Positions 18,487-44,910 are shown, numbered from the stretch's first letter. The stretch is 64,000 nt of DNA from Candidatus Latescibacterota bacterium (GCA_965204745.1 OZ242010.1:4544001-4608000); one strand, 5' to 3'. Program-made: numbers and translations. The notes: a model not told the origin generated them from the sequence alone.

Positions 18487-21400
18487 ATGCGTAACCGGAT
18501 TTTATCAACGGGCTTGTTGATGACCGCTCTGATCGTGCTGATCTTTCTGAGCTATCGGGCCGTTGCTGAACCCGATGCCCAAGGTGGCGCGACCACAGGG
18601 GAAATTTCCCCGATTGCTGAACCGCACGCGAAAATGCCCGATGTACGCAAAGCACGGCGGTTGCTCGAACGCATCGCCGAAGCCACGCACAGATCGGATG
18701 ACATTACACAGCGCACGAAAGTTGCCGCTGGCGCCAATGCCAATACGCGGCTGTCGCTCGACCTGATCGCCAATGGCGGATCGGGCAATCGGCGAAATGA
18801 TGGCGTCACATCGGGCACCGTGTCTGGGCGAGGCACCAAAATTGCCATTGAGATTTTCGCAACCGGCGTCACCACCCCTTTGATCGGCATGCAACTTCGG
18901 TTTGACTTTGATTCGTCCCTCGTCACCTTTGTCAAAGCCGAGAACAGCGCGTTTGCCTTGAACCTGCCATCACCACCGACGGGCACAGACTTCGCGGCGA
19001 CGTCACCGGTCACATTGCCATCGTCTAATTTTCTGGCACGGGCAGAGTTCACCACAGCGTCCGATGTCACGGATAGGGAATTTTCCATTGGCATTGCGTC
19101 GGTGGTGCTTTCTGAAAGCCAGTCCTCGAGCGACAGGCTCATCACGAGAAACCGGATCTCGTTTAACGTTCCCACTACTCTCACGCCCGATTTTGATGGC
19201 GATGGGATGGTAGGCTTTTCCGACTTCTTGGCGTTTGCAGGGCGATATGGCACGCGGCGCGGGGATGGCAGATACCAAGCCAAGTACGATTTGAACCGCG
19301 ATGGCGCAATAGACTTTTCTGATTTTCTGAGTTTTGCCGGCAGTTATGGCAAGCCGCCCCCTAACAGTGGCGGTAGCAGTCCCGACGGTGAGCAACGGGG
19401 CGGTACGCCCAAGATGTACTGGGTGGACACGGGGAAGATTCAGCGTGCCAACCTCGATGGCTCGAATGTCGAAGACCTCATCACCACAGGATTGAGTGCG
19501 CCAGATGGCATCGCGCTGGATGTGGAACGCGGAAAGATGTACTGGACGGACTGGATCGCGGATAAGATTCAGCGTGCCAACCTCGATGGCTCAAATGTTG
19601 AAGACCTCATCACCACAGGATCGTATGGGCTAAGGGGCATCGCGCTGGATGTGGAGCGCGGAAAGATGTACTGGACGGACTGGTACACGGCTAAGATTCA
19701 GCGTGCCAACCTCAATGGCTCGAATGTCGAAGACCTCATCACCACAGGATTGAAGTCGCTAGATGGCATCGCGCTGGATGTGGAACGCGGAAAGATGTAC
19801 TGGACGGACTATGGCACGAATAAGATTCAGCGTGCCAACCTCGATGGCTCGAATGTCGAAGACCTCATCACCACAGGATTGAGGCTGCCACGGGGCATCG
19901 CGCTGGATGTGGAACGCGGAAAGATGTACTGGACGGACTATAGCACGAATAAGATTCAGCGTGTGCCAACCTCAATGGCTCAAATGTTGAAGACCTCATC
20001 ACCACAGGATTGAGGTATCCAGGTGGCATCGCGCTGGATGTGGAGCGCGGAAAGATGTATTGGACGGACTGGGGGGCACGGCTTAAGATTCAGCGTGCCA
20101 ACCTCGATGGCTCGAATGTCGAAGACCTCATCACCACAGGATTGAGGCTGCCACGGGGCATCGCACTGGATACCTCGGGGGCCGGTAGCAACGGCGGCGG
20201 TGGCAGTAGTCCCGATCTGATCGTTGAATCGCCTTCGGTCAGCGATAGCACCTTGACGCCTGGGCAATCCTTCACCTTGCAAGCCACAGTTCGCAATCGC
20301 GGCACGGGACAATCAGCCTCGACGACCTTGCGCTATTATCAATCGTCCAACGCGACGATCGCCACGAGCGATACAGAAGTGGGCACGGATTCGGTCAGCG
20401 GTCTTTCGGCTTCGGGCACGGGTTCGGGATTGATCCGTCTAACTGCTCCGTCGAGTGCTGGCACGTATTACTACGGCGCGTGCGTGGCAAGCGTCAGCGG
20501 CGAGAGCAACACCGACAACAACTGCTCGGATGGCGTGCGCGTCACGGTGAGTAGCGGCGGTGGCGGTGGCGGTACGCCCAAGATGTACTGGGTGGACCAG
20601 GAGGCGGCTAAGATTCAGCGTGCCAACTTGGATGGCTCCCAGGTTGAAGACCTCATCACCACAGGATTGGGTACGCCATCTGGCATCGCGCTGGATGTGG
20701 GACGCGGAAAGATGTACTGGACAGACTGGGACACGGATAAGATTCAGCGTGCTAGCTTGGATGGCTCCAATGTCGAAGACCTCATCACCACGGGATTGTG
20801 GCAGCCACTTGGCATCGCGCTGGATGTGGGACGCGGAAAGATGTACTGGACAGACCAGGGCACGGCTAAGATTCAGCGTGCCAACTTGGATGGCTCCAAT
20901 GTCGAAGACCTCATCACCACAGGATTGAGGCGACCAGTTGGCATCACGCTGGATGTGAGACGCGGAAAGATGTACTGGACGGACTGGGACACGGAGAAAA
21001 TTCAGCGTGCCAACTTGGATGGCTCCCAGGTTGAAGACCTCATCACCACAGGATTGAGTTACCCACGGGGCATCGTGCTGGATGTGGGACGCGGAAAGAT
21101 GTACTGGACGGACTATGGCACGGAGAAGATTCAGCGTGCCAACTTGGATGGCTCCAATGTCGAAGACCTCATCACCACAGGATTGAGTTATCCACTTGGC
21201 ATCGCGTTGGATGTGGGACGCGAAAAGATGTACTGGACGGACTGGGACACGGAGAAGATTCAGCGTGCCAACTTGGATGGTTCCAATGCCGAAGACCTCA
21301 TCACCACAGGATTGAGGGAGCCAAATGGCATCGCGCTGGATACCTTGGGGGCCGGTAGTATCAGTCGTCCCGATCTGATCGTTGAATCGCCTTCTGTCAG

Positions 21401-24137
21401 CGACAGCACGCTGACGCCTGGGCAATCCTTTACCTTGCGCGCCACGGTTCGCAATCGCGGCACGGGGCAATCAGCCTCGACGATCTTGCGCTATTATCAA
21501 TCGTCCAAATCGACGATCGCCACGAGCGATACAGAAGTGGGCACGGATTCGGTCAGCGGTCTTTCGGCTTCGGGCACGGGTTCGGAATCGGTCAGTCTAA
21601 CTGCGCCGTCGAGTGCCGGCACGTATTACTACGGCGCGTGCGTGGCAAGCGTCAGCGGCGAGAGCAACACCGATAACAACTGCTCGGATGGCGTGCGCGT
21701 TACGGTGAGTAGCGGCGGTGGCGATGGTGGCGATGGCGATGGCGGTGGCGGTGGCGGTGGCGGCGAGGTTGGTACGCCGAAGATGTACTGGAGAGACACT
21801 GGCACGGCCAAGATTCAGCGTGCCAACTTGGATGGCTCTCAGGTCAAAGACCTCATCACCACAGGATTGAGGGAGCCACTTGGCATCGCGCTGGATGTGG
21901 GACGCGGAAAGATGTACTGGACGGACTATGGCACGGATAAGATTCAGTGTGCCAACCTCGATGGCTCCCAGGTTGAAGACCTCATCACCACAGGATTGAC
22001 TACGCCAGTTGGCATCGTGCTGGATGTGGAACGCGGAAAGATGTACTGGACGGACACTGGCACGGATAAGATTCAGCGTGCCAACTTGGATGGCTCCAAT
22101 GTCGAAGACCTCGTCACCACAGGATTGACTACGCCAGAAGGCATCGCGCTGGATGTGGAACGCGGAAAGATGTACTGGACGGACTGGGGCACGACTAAGA
22201 TTCAGCGCGCCAACTTGGATGGCTCTCAGGTCGAAGACCTCATCACCACAGGATTGACTACGCCAGTTGGCATCGCGCTGGATGTGGAACGCGGAAAGAT
22301 GTACTGGACGGACACTGGCACGGCCAAGATTCAGCGTGCCAACTTGGATGGCTCCAATGTCGAAGACCTCATCACCACAGGATTGAGTAGGCCAAATGGC
22401 ATCGCGCTGGATGTGGGCCGCGGAAAGGTGTACTGGACGGACATTGGCACGGCTAAGATTCAGCGTGCCAACTTGGATGGCTCTCAGGTCGAAGACCTCA
22501 TCACCACAGGATTGAGGACGCCAGGTGGCATCGCGCTGGATACCTCGGGGGCCGGTAGTATCAGTCGTCCCGATCTGATCGTTGAATCGCCTTCGGTCAG
22601 CGACAACACGCTAACGCCTGGGCAATCCTTTACCCTGAAAGCCACAGTTCGCAACCGGGGCACGGGGCAATCAGCCTTGACGACCTTGCGCTATTATCAA
22701 TCGTCCGACGCGACGATCTCCACGAGCGATACAGAAGTGGGCACAGCTTCGGTCAGCGGTCTTTCGGCTTCGGGCATGGGTTCGGAATCGATCAGTCTGA
22801 CTGCGCCGTCGAGTGCTGGCACGTATTACTACGGCGCGTGCGTGGCAAGCGTCAGCGGCGAGAGCAACACCGACAACAACTGCTCGGATGGCGTGCGCGT
22901 CACGGTCGAGGTCAAGGATGACCACAGCAATACCCGATCTGACGCGACCAGCCTGTCTTTGGGTAGCTCACGCTCTGGGCAGATAGACACCGGCGGCGAT
23001 GTCGATTACTTCAGAGTGCAAGTCAGCCGTTCTGGCACCTTGACGGTTTATACGACAGGATACACCGATACTTATGGTACGTTGCAAAACCGTTTCGGCT
23101 CCTCTTTGGAAACCGATGACGATGGAGGAAGTGGTAATAATTTCAGTATCGAACGTTCCGTGAGTGCGGGGACCTACTACATCGCAGTACGAGGATATGA
23201 CTCGTCAGCGACTGGAAGTTATGCCGTTCACGCAAATCACGAAGAGGCAGAGGTCTCCGGCACCGCAGGGACCTTCCACATTGATCTCGTCTTCCCCAAC
23301 GACAGCGACTTCACGGCCTCACAGAAAGCATTGTTCCAGCAGGCCGCCACGCACTGGATGTCGATCATCACAGAAGACCTTCCGGATATCGACTTTTCGA
23401 CCAATCCGGTCTACTACTATGACGTGTTGTTGGGCCTGATTCACGTCGACGACGCTGTAGATGATTTGCGGATATACGTGCGTAGCGTCTATATTGACGG
23501 GTTGAGTAATACGCTGGGGCAAGCGGGGCCATTACATATACGGCACAGTTCTAACCTGCCGAGCCTCGGCATCCTACTCCTCGATGCGGCTGACCTAAAG
23601 CGCATGGAAGAGGACGGATTCTTGTACTCGGTGATTCTTCACGAGATGGGGCATGTGCTGGGAATCGGTACCCTCTGGAGCGAACACGGCTGGCTTCAGA
23701 ATCCATCTTCCAACAACCCGGGGGCAGACACGCACTTTACCGGGCCGCGGACGATTCAGGCGTTCGACAATGCGGAAGGTTGGGACTACACAGGGGCTAA
23801 GGTACCGGTAGAGAATGAGCGCGATAAAGGCCAAGACGGGCATTGGCGGGAGCGCGTGTTGGACCATGAACTCATGACGGGATGGACAGAGAGGGGCATG
23901 CCCGAAGCCCTGAGCGCGATCACGATCCAATCTTTAGCCGACCTCGGCTATCGAGTTGACATCAGTCGGGCCGACGCATACAGCTTGCCCGACCCAACCC
24001 AGGTGAGTGCGAAAACCGCCGAGGGACATGGCCTCAGTTTCGAGAACTGCATCCGAAGCGGGCCGATCTACGTCGTAGATGAGCAGGGGCGCGTCCTCCG
24101 CATTATCGAAAATGAGGCGCACCCCGCCAAAGAATAA
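18487..24137 (+). CDS. Giant secreted protein: cohesin-like, EF-hand/dockerin-like, 3x[6 YWTD (LDLR class B) repeats + CARDB], PPC, leishmanolysin-like M8 metallopeptidase; frameshifted at about 19962
   Basis: DFDGDGMVGFSDFL, 18x KMYWTD-type repeats, PDLIVESPSVS, HEMGHVLGIG...GHWRE...ELMT. An extra GT (CAGCGTGTGCC vs CAGCGTGCC) splits ORFs 18487-20013 and 20010-24137. Confidence 0.85.
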
Positions 24138-24183: not shown

Positions 24184-24246
24184 ACTGACCACTAACCACT
24201 AACCACTGACCACTGACAACTGACAACTGACAACTGACAACTGACC
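24184..24246. repeat. Heptamer tandem repeat (CTRACMA)x~9
   Basis: Direct reading, immediately before the thiG ATG. Confidence 0.9.
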
Positions 24247-25023
24247 ATGACAAACGACTTCACAATCGCAGGCGTGACCTACCGATCTCGACTGTTGATC
24301 GGCAGCGCGCGCTATCCCAACATGCAAGTGATGCTGAAGGCCATCGAGGCCAGCGGGGCAGAGATCGTCACCGTGGGGATACGGCGGATCGACATGCATG
24401 ACGCATCCGGCGAGGGCGTGCTCAATTTGCTCGACAGATCGCGCTACGCCATTTTGCCCAATACAGCCGGGTGTTTCACGGCGCGAGACGCGGTGTTGAC
24501 CGCAAAATTGGCACGCGAAGCACTCGAAACCGATTGGGTCAAATTGGAGGTGATCGGGGATGAGCGCACCTTGTTTCCGGACGTGACCGGGTTGCTCCAC
24601 GCTGCCGAAACACTGGTGAACGACGGGTTCACCGTGTTGCCCTATTGCAATGACGATCCCATTACCTGCAAGAAATTGGAGGACTTGGGATGCGCTGCGG
24701 TGATGCCCCTCGGCGCGCCCATTGGTTCGGGCATGGGGATTCGCAATCCCTACAACATTCAAATCATTTTGGATTCGGTGCGCGTGCCGGTGATCGTGGA
24801 TGCGGGCGTGGGCACGGCGTCCGACGCTGCGTTGGCAATGGAATTGGGATGCGATGGCGTGTTGCTGAATACCGCAGTCGCGGGGGCGCGGCATCCGGTA
24901 AAGATGGCCCGAGCGATGAAAAACGGGGTTCAGGCCGGGCGATGGGCGTTTGAGGCCGGGCGGATTCCCCGCAAGTTGTACGCCACGGCTTCCACGACAA
25001 TGGAAGGACGGGTGGTCTTGTGA
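24247..25023 (+). CDS. thiG: Thiazole synthase
   Basis: [38 protein letters not shown]. Confidence 0.97.
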
Positions 25024-34390: not shown

Positions 34391-34529
34391 TTGCAAGAGG
34401 GTGCGAATGCTCAATCCCTCCAAGTGGTCGAGCAATGTGGTTTGAATCCGCTCGACGGTTGCTGTTGCGAGAGCACTTGCATCAATTCTACCTCGCGTTC
34501 TCGCTCCTTATTAGACCACGCAACAAAAC

Positions 34530-34563
34530 AAGCCCGGGTTCGCGAGGAACTCGGGCTTTTGGT
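34530..34563. terminator. Hairpin terminator AAGCCCGGGTTC...GAACTCGGGCTTT (second copy at about 41557-41588)
   Basis: GC stem with T tail; copy 2 follows the stop at 41527. Confidence 0.7.
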
Positions 34564-34666
34564 TTTTCGCAAAAACCAAGCGCGCTTCGGTGGCGGGGCG
34601 AAGCCTGAAAGTTGAGAACAAATGATATTACGCAATGTCCCGCTTGTCATTCATCGGGGAATCGCG

Positions 34667-35662
34667 TCAGGCTTCCGCATCTAACACGCGCTGAAAGGCA
34701 TCCAGATCATCCGCTTGCATCGCCGAGCGAAGCAACTGCTTGAGCCGTTGCAAATCGTCGATGGTCGCAATGCGAGCGGTGAACTGGCCGGCCACCCCCG
34801 CATCAAAGCGAATCTCCAACGCTTCTCGGATGCTCTCTCGAATGCCCTGCTCAATGCCCTGCTCAATGCCCTGCTCAATGCCCTGCTCAATGCCCTGCTC
34901 AATGCCCTGCTCAATGCCCTGCTCAATGCCCTGCTCGATGCCCTGCTCGATGAACTGTTCCTTGAACTGCTCCTGGATCTGTTCCTTGAGGTATTGGGCA
35001 AACGATGACTCACGCATAATCGCGTCCATAAAACCCTCCTGTAAAAAAATCCGCGTGATGGTGGGCAGATCATAAGCCAACCCACTCAAAACCGCCAAGC
35101 TATTCAAAAAATTAGCCTTTTCTGATTGATCCAACGAAACCGAATCGCTCCTGCGAACACACTCGCGCAACCAGTCCTCGGAAGCCACCCCCACAGGAGG
35201 TTGCATCAACGGCGCGAAAGGAAGCAAGCCCGGATGACCACCCTCGAGGATACCTTGCCCGTCTATCTCGGTCAATCGAAGCACCTTGTATTCTACAAAG
35301 ACGCGATGGTCGGGAAGTTCTTGAATGTAGTATCCTTCATCGCGGCGCCCGGCATTGGGACGCAGGTAGATGACAAAGGCATAGACCGGCAGGTCATAGC
35401 GTTCGATGAGGCGGAGGATATAGATCGCCATGCGAAGAGCCATATTCGCGCTGTCGGTGGTTTGAAATTCGATGTGTACCAAGGCTTCCTCGCCATCGAT
35501 CCGCACGCGAATCACGCTATCGACCATGCGCGTTTCAATCCTCGGGAGTTCGGTGTCGAGAACTTCTTCAATTTCGACATCATCGCGTCCGAGTGCCAAG
35601 TGGACGAGGTCTTGGGGGTAGATGTGAATCAACTGCTTGGGAATCGTGTCGTATTCTGCCAT
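34667..35662 (-). CDS. Rpn family (PD-(D/E)XK recombination-promoting nuclease/putative transposase) with (EQGI)9 repeat
   Basis: RMVDSVI, HIEFQT, MALRMAIY, VIYL; 12-bp tandem repeat at 34841-34948; C-terminal LEIRF...DLQRLKQLL. Confidence 0.88.
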   Translation of the reverse strand: MAEYDTIPKQLIHIYPQDLVHLALGRDDVEIEEVLDTELPRIETRMVDSVIRVRIDGEEALVHIEFQTTDSANMALRMAIYILRLIERYDLPVYAFVIYLRPNAGRRDEGYYIQELPDHRVFVEYKVLRLTEIDGQGILEGGHPGLLPFAPLMQPPVGVASEDWLRECVRRSDSVSLDQSEKANFLNSLAVLSGLAYDLPTITRIFLQEGFMDAIMRESSFAQYLKEQIQEQFKEQFIEQGIEQGIEQGIEQGIEQGIEQGIEQGIEQGIEQGIRESIREALEIRFDAGVAGQFTARIATIDDLQRLKQLLRSAMQADDLDAFQRVLDAEA

Positions 35663-35848
35663 GGGGAACCTCCTGAGATTGTTTGAACGACTTGCGGAAC
35701 AACAATAAATAATCCGCAATCCCTCGCGCGATGTCAAGGGATTTTCCCATCCGTGCCCAACCGCTCTACCCAACAGCCCATCCGTGTCTGAATCGCGGAT
35801 TAAACGGATTAGGGGATTGCGCGGATTACCTCACACCGCCCTACCGCA

Positions 35849-39200: not shown

Positions 39201-41527
39201 CGGTCACCAATACCGGTTCCGGTGCCATCACCGCCGGTGGCCTGATCGGTTGGTCCTATGGCCTGGTCAGCGTCAGCTACGCGACCGGGAATGTCACCGG
39301 TGCCGGCGCCGGCAGATTGGGCGGCCTGATCGGGGTGATGGAAGGTTCCAGCTTCGCCAGCTACGCGACCGGGAACGTTTCTGGTAGTGGCACCGGCACC
39401 GGTGGCACCGAAGGAGAAAGCCATAGAATGGGCGGCCTGATCGGGCAGGTAGAACTCGGTAGTGGCGAATACCTGCGCGCCAGCTACGCGACCGGGAACG
39501 TTTCCGGGAGCGGCACCGGCGTCAAAGCGGGCGGTCTGATAGGCCGCGTGACCGTCGCTGACATCAACTCGATAACCGCTGTCTATGCTATCGGTGCTGT
39601 TTCCAACACCAGCACCGGCACCACAGCCACCGGCGGCCTGGCGGCAGAAGAGGTGGGGGCAATCACGTCGATAATAGCCAACAGCTACTGGGACACCCAA
39701 ACCACCGGGCAGGACACCACCGCTGGAGCCAGCAGTGGCACCAGGGGTCAAACCACCAGCGCACTCCAAACCCCCACAGGCTATACCGGCATCTACACCA
39801 CCTGGAACCAGAATCTGGACGGGCAAGCGGGCAACGACGATCCGTGGAACTTTGGCGCGGCGGATCAGTATCCCGTGTTGAAGTATGGCGGCCTGGACGC
39901 CACCGCGCAATTTGCGATGCAACTGGGCATACCGACGGGTGTGGCAGTGATGGCCAATGCGGACACCTTAGTCGTGCGCTGGCGTTCGGTGAGTGGTGCG
40001 ACGGGGTACGCAGTGCAGTGGAAATCCGGCATGCAGAGCTACGCCGCCTCGCGTGAGGCCGCCACCACGGCTACGCTCTACAAGATTCCCAACTTGACGC
40101 CGGGGACGACCTACACAATACGTGTCAGTGCCACCAGGGCCGGTGCTCGCGGCACACCTTCGGTCGAGGTCATGGGCGTCCCAGAGGAGCCCCGAGGGGC
40201 AGGGCAAGAACCGGAACCGGAACCCGAACCGGATCCGGATACGGAGCCGTCCTTCACCGAGGCGGTTGATCCGCAAAGCTATTGGCAAGACAAGGCCATT
40301 GAACCGCTGACCTTGCCCGTGGCAACAGATGGCAATGGGGACCTAACCTACAGCCTGACGGGTCTGCCCGAGGGGTTGACCTTTGACGCCGAGACGCGCA
40401 TCGTGTCTGGCACACCACTCGAGGCGGTAGAAAAAGCGATCTACACCCTGACCGTCACAGATGAAGATGGCGATGAGGCCGCCCTGAGTTTCTTCCTCAC
40501 CGTCGTTGCGAACCTGTTGCCCTCCTTTGGCGATGCGAGTGTGGATACACTGGCCTATACGCGGAAGCAAGAGATCGAATCCTTGACCCTCCCGCAAGTG
40601 ACCGGTGGCGATGCCCCGCTGACCTACGCATTGACCCCCGATCTGCCCGAGGGCTTGCGCTTCGATGGCGCGACCCGGGTGCTGTCTGGCACACCGCTCA
40701 AGGCAACGGACGAAACGACCTATACGCTGACCGCCACAGACAGCGATGGCGACGAGGCCACCCTGATGTTCACCCTCTCTGTGATAGCTGATCCGATGCC
40801 GACCTTCGGCGATACGGCCGTCGCCGCACGGGTCTATATGCAACATCGAGAGATCGATCCCCTGACGCTCCCGCAAGCGACCAGTGGCGATGCCCCGCTG
40901 ACCTACGCGCTGTCCCCGGTTCTGCCCGAGGGCTTGACCTTTGACGCCGAAACGCGAGTGCTGTCTGGCACACCGATCAAGGCCATGGATGAGACGACCT
41001 ACACGTTGACCGCCACAGATGGCAATGGCGATGAAGTGCCTCTCATGTTCACCCTTGAAGTCCCGGACCTGATGCCTGCCTTTGGCGATACGACTATCGC
41101 CGCACAAAGCTATCTCGTCAATCAAGAGATCGCGTCCCTAACGCTCCCGCAAGCGTCCGGTGGCGATGGAATGTTGGTCTATATCCTGCTCCCATTCCTC
41201 CCAGATGGCCTATCGTTTGACCCGACCACGCGCACTCTTTCCGGTATGCCGACCGAGGCGAAGGCCCAGGCGACCTACACCTTGAGCGCGTTAGACGCCG
41301 ATGGCGATGTGGCCTCGCTACCCTTCACGCTCGAAGTCTCACTCCCCTCGCCCGACCTCAATGGCGATGGGGTTGTGAATTTCGCCGACTTCTTGACCTT
41401 TGCCAGCAAGTTCGGCTCGCGACTCGGCCAGGAGCGATACGACGCCCGGTGCGATCTCAATGGCGATAGTCAAATTGACTTTGACGACTTCCTCATCTTC
41501 GCCGCCGACTTTGGCTCATCAGGCTGA
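36245..41527 (+). CDS. Giant surface protein: extended signal peptide, 3 GLUG-motif modules, FN3, Ig-like (He_PIG) repeats, C-terminal EF-hand/dockerin-like
   Basis: GGAGGG SD; SGPAFAQ cleavage site; AQLNAIRWDLNGDG modules; GGLVG/GGLIG; LPEGLTFDAETR; DLNGDGVVNFADFL. Confidence 0.85.
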   Translation: MLTAIFRRCSNLFGGHRSPAKRGVHVAHPRLGVPFYFIANQSVLLAMVALVLLMASGPAFAQTDYDTDNDNLIDINNLAQLNAIRWDLNGDGAIDASASTADTTAYNTAFSNAMSGMGCPATCTGYELMSNLDFDENSDNEITAADATYWNSGTGWDPIARDPSGQRFATTLKGNGHTIDNLFINRSSNNQGLFAAVENGARIESLGITNASVTASEYVGILTANNYGEIVACYTTGAISASNFAGGLAGFHHSDAGTAATITTSYSTASVTSGANGGGLVGRSSQVAGATTTIINSYSTGAVSTGGGLIGSNNLGTTTASYWDTSTSGRATSALGTGYATAALQGPTDYTGIYTAWNANIDGQAGNDDPWAFGTAYQYPVLKYASMDTAVQFAAQPVRYDTDSDGLIEVSSLAQLNAIRWDLNGDGAIDTSATTSDTTAYNTAFPRRDSRSGSRMGCPSGCTGYELMNNLDFDENSDNAITAADATYWNSGTGWDPIARDPAGQQFETTLKGNGHTIDNLFINRSSNNQGLFAAVGNGGRIEALGVTNASVTASEYVGILSGNNYGEIVACYTTGSITGTNFIGGLAGLQSGRTGAPATITTSYSTASVTSNAANVGGLVGRTFQAAGSSSTIINSYSTGAVSSTGGGLIGSNNSGTATASYWDTTTSGRATSALGTGYATADLQAPTDYTGIYTAWNANIDGQAGNDDPWNFGTAYQYPVLKYDGMDTAVQFAAQPVRYDTDSDGLIEVSSLAQLNAMRWDLNGDGAIDASASTSDTTAYNTAFPRRDSRSGSRMGCPSACTGYELMNNLDFNTDGSYPNWTGIGVAASGAATAFSATFDGNDNTISNLSINSSTSTATGGGFIGLFGDVSGTIRDVGLLDVNITNTRTSTASSNNFGRTGALAGRLSSGGTVRGSYVAGGSVTHTTSSTSFGSLGCLLGYSEGTVRDSYATCNATGANNNTLSIGGLIGETQGTVDSTYATGTVTNTGSGAITAGGLIGWSYGLVSVSYATGNVTGAGAGRLGGLIGVMEGSSFASYATGNVSGSGTGTGGTEGESHRMGGLIGQVELGSGEYLRASYATGNVSGSGTGVKAGGLIGRVTVADINSITAVYAIGAVSNTSTGTTATGGLAAEEVGAITSIIANSYWDTQTTGQDTTAGASSGTRGQTTSALQTPTGYTGIYTTWNQNLDGQAGNDDPWNFGAADQYPVLKYGGLDATAQFAMQLGIPTGVAVMANADTLVVRWRSVSGATGYAVQWKSGMQSYAASREAATTATLYKIPNLTPGTTYTIRVSATRAGARGTPSVEVMGVPEEPRGAGQEPEPEPEPDPDTEPSFTEAVDPQSYWQDKAIEPLTLPVATDGNGDLTYSLTGLPEGLTFDAETRIVSGTPLEAVEKAIYTLTVTDEDGDEAALSFFLTVVANLLPSFGDASVDTLAYTRKQEIESLTLPQVTGGDAPLTYALTPDLPEGLRFDGATRVLSGTPLKATDETTYTLTATDSDGDEATLMFTLSVIADPMPTFGDTAVAARVYMQHREIDPLTLPQATSGDAPLTYALSPVLPEGLTFDAETRVLSGTPIKAMDETTYTLTATDGNGDEVPLMFTLEVPDLMPAFGDTTIAAQSYLVNQEIASLTLPQASGGDGMLVYILLPFLPDGLSFDPTTRTLSGMPTEAKAQATYTLSALDADGDVASLPFTLEVSLPSPDLNGDGVVNFADFLTFASKFGSRLGQERYDARCDLNGDSQIDFDDFLIFAADFGSSG

Positions 41528-41593
41528 CAACTGCGAAAGACGCGAAAGGAAAAAGTAAAGCCCGGGTTCACAGTGAACTCGGGCTTTACTTCT

Positions 41594-43452: not shown

Positions 43453-43589
43453 TTGCCACCTCCCAAATAAAGTTGACAGGGTTCGGACATCGGTATTCAT
43501 TCAGACGAATCAGGCGTAATGGGCGGGGACTGATAACTGACAACTGCCTCTCCCCTCTTGCCTCTCCCCTCTTGTATCTTGGAAGTAAG

Positions 43590-43790
43590 GGTTAATTAGG
43601 AGTTGCGCCCTCGTATCGAGATAAGCCATCTTGATGCCCGGCTCGGGGAAGGCCGGCCCCTCTTGAAGGCGATGACCTTGTAGGTAAGATAGGCCCCCCG
43701 ACCGCCGGGTCTATGCCGAAGAGTATCTAAGCCCCTTGAGGCTGCATATACAAGACCGGTAGACTTGGCGTCAATGGTCGGGACGCGACC
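43590..43790 (+). ncRNA. IS110 bridge RNA (target- and donor-binding loops)
   Basis: Guides CCCCTCTT 43657-64, AGGTAAGA 43682-89, AGAGTATCT 43720-28, ATACAAGA 43748-55 within GGCC/GGCC and GTCTA/TAGAC closing stems. 5'/3' limits are approximate. Confidence 0.8.
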
Positions 43791-43839
43791 CCGAGCGCGC
43801 ACCAGATCCCTTACAACCCCCTCATCACAGGAGGCCCCC

Positions 43840-44847
43840 ATGTCGAAATCTCACCCCGCTTTTGCCGGCATTGATGTCAGTGCCCGCACGTTGTCCGTTG
43901 CCCTGTCCAGACCCGGACAAGCTGTCATGCAAGCGACCTTTGCCAATGATCCCCAAGCGCATAAGCGGTTGCTGAAGTGGCTCACGAAGGGCGGGCACAT
44001 GGTCTCTGTGTGCCTCGAAGCGACCGGGCTTTACAGTTTGGGGGTGGCCTTGGCCTTGCATCGGCATCGCCACACAAAGGTCATGGTCGTCAATCCCAAA
44101 GCGATGAGCAAGTACGCCCAAGCCTGCATGCAACGGGCGAAGACGGATGCGAAGGATGCGTTGTTGATCCTCGACTATGCCGAGCGCATGCCTTTTGTGC
44201 CTTGGCAAGCGCCGAGCGAGCAACGGCTTCAACTGCAAGCCCTCACCAGACGCATTGACCAACTCAAGCAGGAGATCATCCGCGAACAGAGCCGCAACCA
44301 CGCGCAGAGCTACCACATCCGCAGCACACGTCTCATCGCACGCGATATTCAGGTGAATATTCGACACTTCAAACGCCGGATTGCATACTTGGAAAGCCAA
44401 GCCCTCGATCTCGTTTTGCACGATGAGCCCCTCAAGCGTGCCTACCAACGCCTCTGCTCGACGCCTGGCATCGCGCAAACGAGTGCCTTGCGGCTCTTGG
44501 CCGAGTTGACCCTTTTGCCAGAGGAGATGCAACCGCCCCAGTGGGTCGCACATGCAGGCCTGGATCCCAAACCCAAACAATCCGGAACCGCCAATCCACA
44601 AAGACGCATCTCGAAAACCGGGAATAAGTACCTCCGCCATGCCCTCTATATGCCTGCCTGGGTGGCCATCAGACACGAAGGCCATGTCAAAGCCTTCTAT
44701 GACCAACTCATCGCCCGCGGCAAGAAACCTTTGCAGGCTATCGTTGCGGTGATGCGAAAGTTGCTCCATTCGATCTGGGGCATGTTGCGCCATGACCAAG
44801 ATTTTGAGGGCGAAAAATTCTATCGAATCACCCCGAAAACCCCTTGA
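43840..44847 (+). CDS. IS110 family DEDD recombinase/transposase
   Basis: GIDVSA, CLEATG, KTDAKDA, PGIAQ, AGLDPKPKQSG, SKTGNKYLRHALY, AVMRKL; AGGAGG SD. Confidence 0.97.
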   Translation: MSKSHPAFAGIDVSARTLSVALSRPGQAVMQATFANDPQAHKRLLKWLTKGGHMVSVCLEATGLYSLGVALALHRHRHTKVMVVNPKAMSKYAQACMQRAKTDAKDALLILDYAERMPFVPWQAPSEQRLQLQALTRRIDQLKQEIIREQSRNHAQSYHIRSTRLIARDIQVNIRHFKRRIAYLESQALDLVLHDEPLKRAYQRLCSTPGIAQTSALRLLAELTLLPEEMQPPQWVAHAGLDPKPKQSGTANPQRRISKTGNKYLRHALYMPAWVAIRHEGHVKAFYDQLIARGKKPLQAIVAVMRKLLHSIWGMLRHDQDFEGEKFYRITPKTP

Positions 44848-44910
44848 CCTTTTAAGAGAGTATCTTACCTTTTTGCCTTTCACTTCTCGAAAAAACAAGG
44901 GAAGCCCAAC

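Follow-up and report, generated by a model that had tools for sequence, protein, structure and literature searches.

The window analysed here, a 64,000-nucleotide stretch of a Candidatus Latescibacterota genome (G000:C1:4544001-4608000; G000 consists of one contig of 5.48 Mb with 56.5% G+C), contained a single large plus-strand gene at 18487-24137, hereafter the YWTD-M8 gene, which entirely encloses the region highlighted in a preliminary description (19408-22545). It encodes three six-bladed YWTD propellers and a leishmanolysin-like (M8) peptidase module. The blades were near-identical in DNA, silent sites included, except at six codons per blade where replacement divergence far exceeded the silent divergence of the surrounding scaffold, and blades of the same family occupied 15 loci of the genome. 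We consider it probable that this pattern arose through duplication and gene conversion among blades, combined with diversifying selection on a binding face. The three propellers were organized as follows (positions counted from the first letter of the window).

19411..20183, plus strand: YWTD propeller 1, blades at 19411 (123 bp), 19534, 19663, 19792, 19921 (131 bp) and 20052 (132 bp); Ldl_recept_b, 129.9 bits.
20580..21353, plus strand: YWTD propeller 2, six 129-bp blades at 20580, 20709, 20838, 20967, 21096 and 21225; blade location and codon table.
21780..22553, plus strand: YWTD propeller 3, six 129-bp blades at 21780, 21909, 22038, 22167, 22296 and 22425; blade location, codon table, AlphaFold2 (AF2) and Foldseek; this propeller was used for modelling.

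The repeat period given by Tandem Repeats Finder was 129, and 15 of the 18 blades measured exactly 129 bp; blade 1 lacked two codons, blade 6 displayed one additional codon and blade 5 a 2-base insertion. When the blades were aligned in a register of 43 codons that begins with K-M-Y-W-T-D, 20 codons specified a single residue over all 18 blades and 12 of these were also invariant in codon choice, which confirms the earlier report of near-identical blades down to their silent sites. Likewise, variation was concentrated in two short windows, YWTD-x-x-T-x-K (codons 7, 8 and 10, within s+18..s+29 for a blade starting at s) and G-L-x-x-P-x-G (codons 31, 32 and 34, within s+90..s+101), where amino acid entropy reached 1.8-2.9 bits. 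All remaining codons stayed at or below 0.94 bits, apart from codon 41 (1.86 bits), a value due in part to the distinct ending of each propeller's final blade. For the 15 canonical window blades (three were left out for length or frame), Nei-Gojobori counting gave a synonymous divergence (dS) of 0.125 and a nonsynonymous divergence (dN) of 0.051 for 33 scaffold codons, against a dN of 1.12 for the six hypervariable codons. Silent and replacement variation, whose equality would have spoken against the preliminary description, were thus far apart.

This pattern was by no means restricted to the window. A nucleotide profile search of the genome (nhmmer) recovered 144 blades at 15 loci, forming about 24 propellers, a family that had escaped the preliminary description. 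Codon statistics were drawn from the 94 blades that were full-length, exactly 129 nt long and free of stops. Silent choices were nearly fixed among them (TAC 94/94, GAC 88/88, GGA 93/93, ACA 90/91, CCA 80/82, CTC 91/91), and the fixed codons included some that are rare genome-wide within their synonymous sets (GGA 9%, ACA 11%, CCA 13%, CGT 10%). The six variable codons displayed 2.3-3.6 bits and 89 distinct six-residue combinations in the 94 blades, with a dN of 1.14 compared with a scaffold dS of 0.114 (Nei-Gojobori). Variable sites were enriched in W (3.2-fold) and in D, N, S and Y (about 2-fold), while C and M were absent.

As previously noted, the third base of variable codons tended to persist: at each of the six codons its diversity fell below that predicted from codon usage for the residues concerned, the observed value being reached in 0 of 2000 simulations. 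Third-base changes between T and G were nonetheless frequent, and these usually alter the residue. Synonymous T-to-C changes were rare, C occupying the third position in 0-4 of the 94 blades at five hypervariable codons where T was the commonest or second-commonest base. We propose that the persistence of the third base reflects a young divergence in which fixation was driven solely for mutations that alter the amino acid.

The scaffold itself was a mosaic. All four haplotypes occurred at 97 of 183 informative pairs of scaffold sites within the 129-nt unit, and scaffold variants were propeller-specific. Variable residues were decoupled from this background: blade pairs with no or one scaffold difference in 99 nt differed at 4.1-4.7 of the six variable residues, compared with 4.88 expected for independent draws. 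For instance, the window blade at 22296 shared an identical scaffold, with different loops, with blades located 0.6 and 1.3 Mb away.

Exchange was further indicated by the comparison of paralogues with orthologues. The YWTD-M8 gene did not lend itself to this, since searches of the two closest genomes, G016 and G018, did not recover its M8 module (E <=1e-10), and the region upstream of thiG, where the gene lies, was unrelated in G016, G018, G003 and G007. Therefore, a Ser/Thr kinase gene with a propeller ectodomain, orthologous in G000 and G018, was compared instead. Its kinase domain was about 92% identical at the protein level (dS 0.49). The G000 kinase blades displayed a dS of only 0.21 to other G000 blades, as opposed to 0.43 to their G018 orthologues. 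At scaffold codon 21, five blades of the G018 propeller carried His and the G000 propeller Asn, and almost all variable residues differed between the two propellers. In both species (L051, G000:C1:2540588-2542798; L013 in G018) this gene was organized as a kinase, a transmembrane segment, a long E/A/R-rich linker and the YWTD ectodomain, a PknD-like layout in which the propeller begins and ends mid-blade at an identical point. Against G016 no greater likeness of paralogues was seen, scaffold dS being 0.127 between genomes and 0.114 and 0.098 within them.

Ordinary descent was also visible. Propeller 3 of the window and the propeller at C1:3243235 were 92% identical and corresponded blade by blade (e.g. 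TGTD/TTPE versus TGTE/RTPE), with differences at 17 of 36 variable codons and 27 of 222 others. Orthologous propellers from two different bacterial families (L015 in G007 and L018 in G030) kept their loop residues, and even loop insertions, blade by blade. The preliminary description had suggested homogenisation by gene conversion plus targeted diversification. The mosaic scaffold, the decoupled loops and the kinase blades support homogenisation and diversification. As to targeting, no mutator is required: the C1:3243235 duplicate diverged by point changes mostly in the six codons, and the conservation of loops between families argues against it as well.

Propeller 3, modelled with AF2 from an alignment of 13 propellers, adopted a six-bladed fold of 24 strands with a mean predicted local distance difference test score (pLDDT) of 95.1 and a predicted template modelling score (pTM) of 0.92. 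Foldseek related it to the YWTD propellers of LRP6, LRP4, nidogen and LDLR (template modelling score 0.85-0.91, 28-34% identity). Strands assigned by DSSP comprised KMYW(T/R)D, then KIQRAN, then a short strand in VEDLIT (KDLI in model blade 1), PxGIALD being the first strand of the next blade and YWTD lying in strand 2. According to this strand order, codons 7, 8 and 10 form the turn between strands 2 and 3, and codons 31, 32 and 34 the connection from strand 4 to strand 1 and its entry. Since alternate connections of an up-down meander share a face, the six positions of all six blades would be located on one side, in agreement with the single variable face suggested earlier. YWTD propellers bind ligands at their top face, according to the accessible text of PMC12667055 and PMC5452030, the latter naming LDLR residues K560, H562 and H586. 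These three residues may correspond to positions 8, 10 and 32 of the present blade.

In the YWTD-M8 gene, the propellers were embedded in a modular protein with, in order, a hydrophobic N-terminus that resembled a signal peptide (as judged by eye), a dockerin-like pair, three units of a YWTD propeller followed by a CARDB domain, a PPC domain and the M8-like peptidase. The gene was read as two open reading frames (ORFs), 18487-20013 and 20010-24137. Its features other than the propellers were the following.

19189..19326, plus strand: dockerin type I-like pair of Ca-loop motifs, DFDGDGMVGFSDF and DLNRDGAIDFSDF; motif coordinates and Pfam Dockerin_1.
19961..19964, plus strand: 2-base insertion in blade 5 of propeller 1, CAGCGTGTGCC compared with CAGCGTGCC in the other 17 blades; blade comparison.
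20211..20549, plus strand: CARDB domain 1; Pfam CARDB in three stretches, 120.3 bits, and motif limits.
21369..21707, plus strand: CARDB domain 2; Pfam, residues 453-558 of ORF 2.
21714..21763, plus strand: Gly/Asp linker with short GGTGGC / GGCGAT tandem repeats; tandem-repeat search.
22569..22907, plus strand: CARDB domain 3; Pfam and motif limits.
22998..23195, plus strand: PPC (bacterial pre-peptidase C-terminal) domain; Pfam PPC, 26.6 bits, cut-off 25.9.
23463..23975, plus strand: leishmanolysin-like (M8) metallopeptidase core with HEMGH at 23640-23654; Pfam Peptidase_M8, 27.3 bits, cut-off 21.

Ldl_recept_b (PF00058) matched 4 + 13 = 17 stretches in the two ORFs (129.9 and 413.9 bits, cut-off 21). 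The dockerin-like pair scored 21.1 bits, below the Dockerin_1 cut-off of 22.9, and its EF-hand matches were likewise below cut-off. The Peptidase_M8 match was short (profile positions 166-333 of 529), with the HExxH zinc site present as HEMGH, and an NCBIfam scan returned no peptidase family. The Pfam scan of the gene returned no EGF family, each propeller being directly followed by CARDB instead. The product is probably a secreted, dockerin-tethered M8-like metalloprotease. Downstream, a heptamer array (ACTGACC, 9.9 copies, 24184-24251) separated the gene from thiG. Elsewhere in the window, two insertion-sequence-like segments of about 1.3 kb each (~40224-41528 and ~43547-44889) had many copies in G016 and G018 (79-84% identity). 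Another segment of about 1.1 kb (~34521-35678) had dozens of full or partial matches in the same two genomes (67-86% identity) and probably belongs to another multi-copy repeat-domain or mobile family.

At the other loci, the propellers were combined with quite diverse partners: CARDB arrays, Calx-beta giants (one with an open frame of 6383 codons), PPC, small dockerin/EF-hand proteins and the Ser/Thr kinase. NACHT or NB-ARC domains were absent from these partners (CARDB, Calx-beta, PPC, M8, Pkinase), so that no STAND/NLR architecture (signal transduction ATPases with numerous domains, NOD-like receptors) was encountered. Most of the 15 loci belonged to long open frames (367-6383 codons) and had partner domains of their own, which led us to reject silent donor cassettes feeding one expressed gene; stops or breaks, within blades or in the frame, were recorded at three loci (5180265, 3279648 and the YWTD-M8 gene). 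The idea that the variable blades form a library tuned for the M8 peptidase is accordingly too narrow, and given the variety of partners the propeller appears to be a general binding module rather than a protease-specific one.

The distribution in relatives pointed in the same direction. The M8 module occurred in 27 of the 41 genomes of the order searched (G000 included), and in other Latescibacterota it was joined to no propeller, to one, to at least three, or to arrays of leucine-rich repeats (LRRs) in their place. In two of these loci (L027 and L029), the LRR arrays were long and made up of near-identical repeats, and YWTD propellers were lacking. The protein scaffold, with the same variable positions, was found in 34 of the 41 genomes, mostly at 65-76% DNA identity, so that the design must be an old one. 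Database proteins of 146-466 residues matching one propeller numbered more than 6,500 (E <=1e-20), some mislabelled as lactonase YvrE or YncE; twelve that were inspected displayed the same scaffold consensus with lower internal identity. In G016, one locus (L012, G016:C1:640906-644676) carried twelve blades head to tail, with no CARDB between the sixth and the seventh, and adjacent blades with a common loop word in one window suggest very recent tandem duplication. Literature searches on YWTD in sponge symbionts and on Ldl_recept_b in bacteria did not yield a description of this family, and the main text of an article on sponge Latescibacterota (PMC12993501) did not contain the words YWTD, LDL, propeller, leishmanolysin or dockerin.

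Taken together, these results may be accounted for as follows. Unequal crossing-over and gene conversion, acting inside single loci as well as from one locus to another, would repeatedly duplicate and exchange blades and whole propellers, and so keep about 37 scaffold codons near-identical, silent sites included. Strong diversifying selection would fix amino acid replacements at the six variable codons of each blade, all located on one side of the propeller, and purifying selection would act on the loops once a specificity is useful. Each propeller would thereby display its own ring of up to 36 variable residues, rich in W, Y, D, N and S, which together with loop-length variants would constitute a ligand-binding surface. 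The family would thus be a general extracellular binding cassette and, in the window, three propellers, each followed by a CARDB spacer, would target an M8-like protease. The observations of the preliminary description therefore stood, while its interpretation was supported in part.

Several points weigh against this reading. For selection acting by itself, a dN/dS ratio near 9 would be very high, and the figure is a rough one (Nei-Gojobori estimates on saturated codons over a homogenised denominator); the replacement excess relies on this counting method rather than on recombination-aware likelihood site models. The 50 blades outside the codon statistics (loop indels, truncation, stops) represent over a third of the 144; most had indels in the same two windows as judged by eye (for example, up to 12 extra residues after YWTD; LITSASGLRNPSGI), so that loop variability is understated. 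In the model, the placement of the variable residues on one face follows from strand order rather than from measured distances, and ligand binding is suggested by fold and analogy. Population data consisted of assembled contigs, whose uncovered parts carry no information on loop heterogeneity. A further point is the comparison with G016, where 38 canonical blades were available out of 53 found in seven loci. The scaffold dS of 0.127 between these and the 94 G000 blades hardly exceeded the within-genome values, the majority codon was identical at all 33 scaffold codons, and dS in thiGED reached 0.32, that is, 2.5 times the blade value. Under plain concerted evolution, the blades should have diverged at least as far as the species, and either gene flow or silent-site constraint must be added.

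Such an addition, which would supplement exchange and selection rather than replace them, is possible, though we hold it only tentatively. Silent identity of the scaffold would be kept by more than intragenomic conversion, either through gene flow, with blade or propeller cassettes passing among symbiont species that live together, or through purifying selection on the DNA or RNA itself (recombination homology, translation pace). Besides the low G000-G016 divergence, it is favoured by a scaffold dS of 0.31 to G026, a member of another family, albeit on only three blades, and by the absence of a detected, syntenic YWTD-M8 gene in the two closest genomes. G000 and G016 blades coalescing after the species split would require gene flow, unless silent sites are constrained. 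Yet the blades of the G018 kinase propeller stood at neutral divergence from those of G000 (0.39-0.43). This speaks against a constraint of general reach, the remaining options being gene flow or a recent origin in common. The neutral rate was calibrated by one housekeeping block (727 codons), other syntenic blocks being 85-92% identical in DNA, and no transferred segment with its flanks was identified.

A bolder proposal, unlikely in our opinion, would make the invariant scaffold DNA the working part, rather than a by-product, of a bacterial combinatorial receptor system. The roughly 144 interchangeable blades would serve as a recombination pool from which loop sets are continually reassorted and renewed over 15 surface-protein genes, the pool would be common to co-resident symbiont species, and a dedicated factor would perhaps focus change on the six codons. 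If true, sharing of the pool between species would explain why silent divergence of the scaffold between G000 and G016 is 2.5 times below that of housekeeping genes.

Recent amplification from one founder with relaxed constraint on the loops, and no positive selection, is improbable. The near-fixation of silent sites on genome-wide rare codons is what a single founder predicts. In the available portion of PMC9218822, young and highly repetitive propellers are moreover described in all major lineages, and their lineage-specific nucleotides are read as independent amplifications. However, unconstrained sites cannot outpace silent ones, and replacement divergence at the six codons was about nine times the scaffold dS; the rarity of synonymous T-to-C changes and the old design, recurrent throughout the order, are further arguments against it.

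Rewriting of positions 1 and 2 of the six codons by a targeted mutational mechanism, be it an atypical diversity-generating retroelement (DGR) or another system, received very little credit. The NNT/NNC/NNG pattern does resemble the AAY-to-NNY outcome of DGRs, loops were saturated even where scaffolds were identical, and nearly every variable residue differed between the orthologous kinase propellers. Yet the only RVT_1 match in the whole one-contig genome was a retron Ec67-type reverse transcriptase (RT), RT-Toprim (G000:C1:5010687-5012423, or L011 1369-3105; NF038237, 708 bits against a cut-off of 450; PADLOC RT-Toprim_I-C, E 1.8e-218), and a DGR was rejected as a candidate. The adenines of CCA, GGA, ACA and AAG, beside and between the variable codons, were invariant, while all four bases varied at the variable codons themselves. 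The earlier argument against a classical DGR, based on such silent adenines, was thus extended from the window to the genome. Third bases changed too (T/G), loop-length variants are not the output of point mutators, and the L015/L018 orthologues kept their loops across families.

The frame of the YWTD-M8 gene was broken within blade 5 by the two extra bases at 19961-19964, a feature overlooked previously. In public data, contigs from four independent runs matched the gene, and the runs holding it included sponge metagenomes. Contigs fitting two places ranged from 213 of 381 to 344 of 575, since contigs break at repeats. Run X10, the best match, displayed no difference to the window in the unique pieces listed, and the sole listed difference inside a variable codon was 19505 A>T in run X5. 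No contig spanned 19961 in runs X10, X1 and X12; one contig of X5 lacked the two bases there, possibly an intact allele or an assembly error. The frameshift may accordingly correspond to a real pseudogene or to an assembly error, and we favour neither. A second YWTD/Calx-beta gene (L056, G000:C1:3279492-3286476) was likewise divided, downstream of the first propeller, into a pair of overlapping frames. That blades were made alike by repeat collapse or polishing is scarcely credible: frameshifts in these two repeat genes and the lack of an X10 contig over the site would fit, but the family, variable positions included, recurred in 34 of 41 genomes and in thousands of database proteins, four runs had contigs on the gene, X10 agreed with it in its unique pieces, and in-frame, residue-diverse loops are not a product of polishing errors.

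A constant-scaffold, variable-loop extracellular design carried by proteases, adhesin-like giants and a receptor kinase would represent a natural binder scaffold. Its members are candidate host-recognition proteins in sponge symbiosis, with a specificity that turns over between close species. For protein engineering, they would offer a natural library of stable, near-symmetric six-bladed propellers with about 36 tolerant surface positions each. Sharing of silent sites across species, if confirmed, bears on gene flow among co-resident symbionts.

The propellers described by Pereira and Lupas in 2022 displayed, in the accessible text of PMC9218822, near-identical blades with few silent changes and lineage-specific nucleotides common to a propeller, as here. 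The present work instead emphasises hypervariability at specific sites and exchange among many loci; the words YWTD, LDL, concerted, gene conversion and positive selection were absent from the main text of that article as retrieved. DGRs share with our blades the presence of variable codons with a persistent third base inside a constant receptor scaffold. They differ by a dedicated RT and a template repeat, by the targeting of adenines and by one C-terminal variable region, compared with 144 variable units here. The evolutionary logic of the present family also matches that of TAL-effector repeats.

Animal YWTD propellers (LDLR, LRP2/4/6, ApoER2, nidogen; 3S8Z, 3V65, 1NPE, 1IJQ) displayed the same family assignment (PF00058, 414 bits here), six blades and YWTD in strand 2. 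Yet their blades are mutually divergent and an EGF module follows, whereas scaffolds here were about 85-95% identical and followed by CARDB, with no EGF detected. Sequence matches to the PknD sensor (1RWI, E 3.8e-19) and to Pizza6 (2.3e-50), one of the designer propellers derived from that type, designate the nearest solved bacterial-type relatives. As in Mycobacterium tuberculosis PknD, one family member is the ectodomain of a Ser/Thr kinase, but PknD has just one NHL-type propeller, encoded by one gene, contrary to the 15-locus family with measurable exchange and turnover reported here. We take the PknD propeller to be highly symmetric, with its variation gathered on one face.

The closest parallel was found in fungi, whose NLRs carry 'highly internally conserved' WD/ANK/TPR repeats according to the retrievable part of PMC4986451. 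In the portion of PMC1805685 at hand, the WD40 repeats of the Podospora anserina NWD/HNWD genes (HET-D, HET-E, HET-R) underwent concerted evolution within and between 10 loci, and four selected codons flanked conserved ones on an interaction face. The account given above for the YWTD blades is the one put forward for those repeats. Both systems, within the same portion of that source, combine near-identical propeller repeats at many loci, exchange within and between loci, and a repeat domain joined to varied partners. Their few diversifying codons are paired around a conserved codon (here 8 and 10 around T9, 32 and 34 around P33), and unique combinations amounted to 55 in 69 repeats in Podospora (PMC1805685, same portion) and 89 in 94 here. 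The present repeats differ in being of the YWTD/LDLR class B type (43 residues, six blades), in a bacterium, and in being extracellular (dockerin-like, CARDB, Calx-beta, PPC, peptidase, kinase ectodomain) rather than part of cytoplasmic STAND/NLR proteins. Moreover, they are free of repeat-induced point mutation (RIP), vary in loop length as well, and share their scaffold DNA with a sister species below neutral divergence. The pattern is thus already known from fungal immune receptors, and the present family is an unusually large, multi-locus bacterial YWTD example of it.

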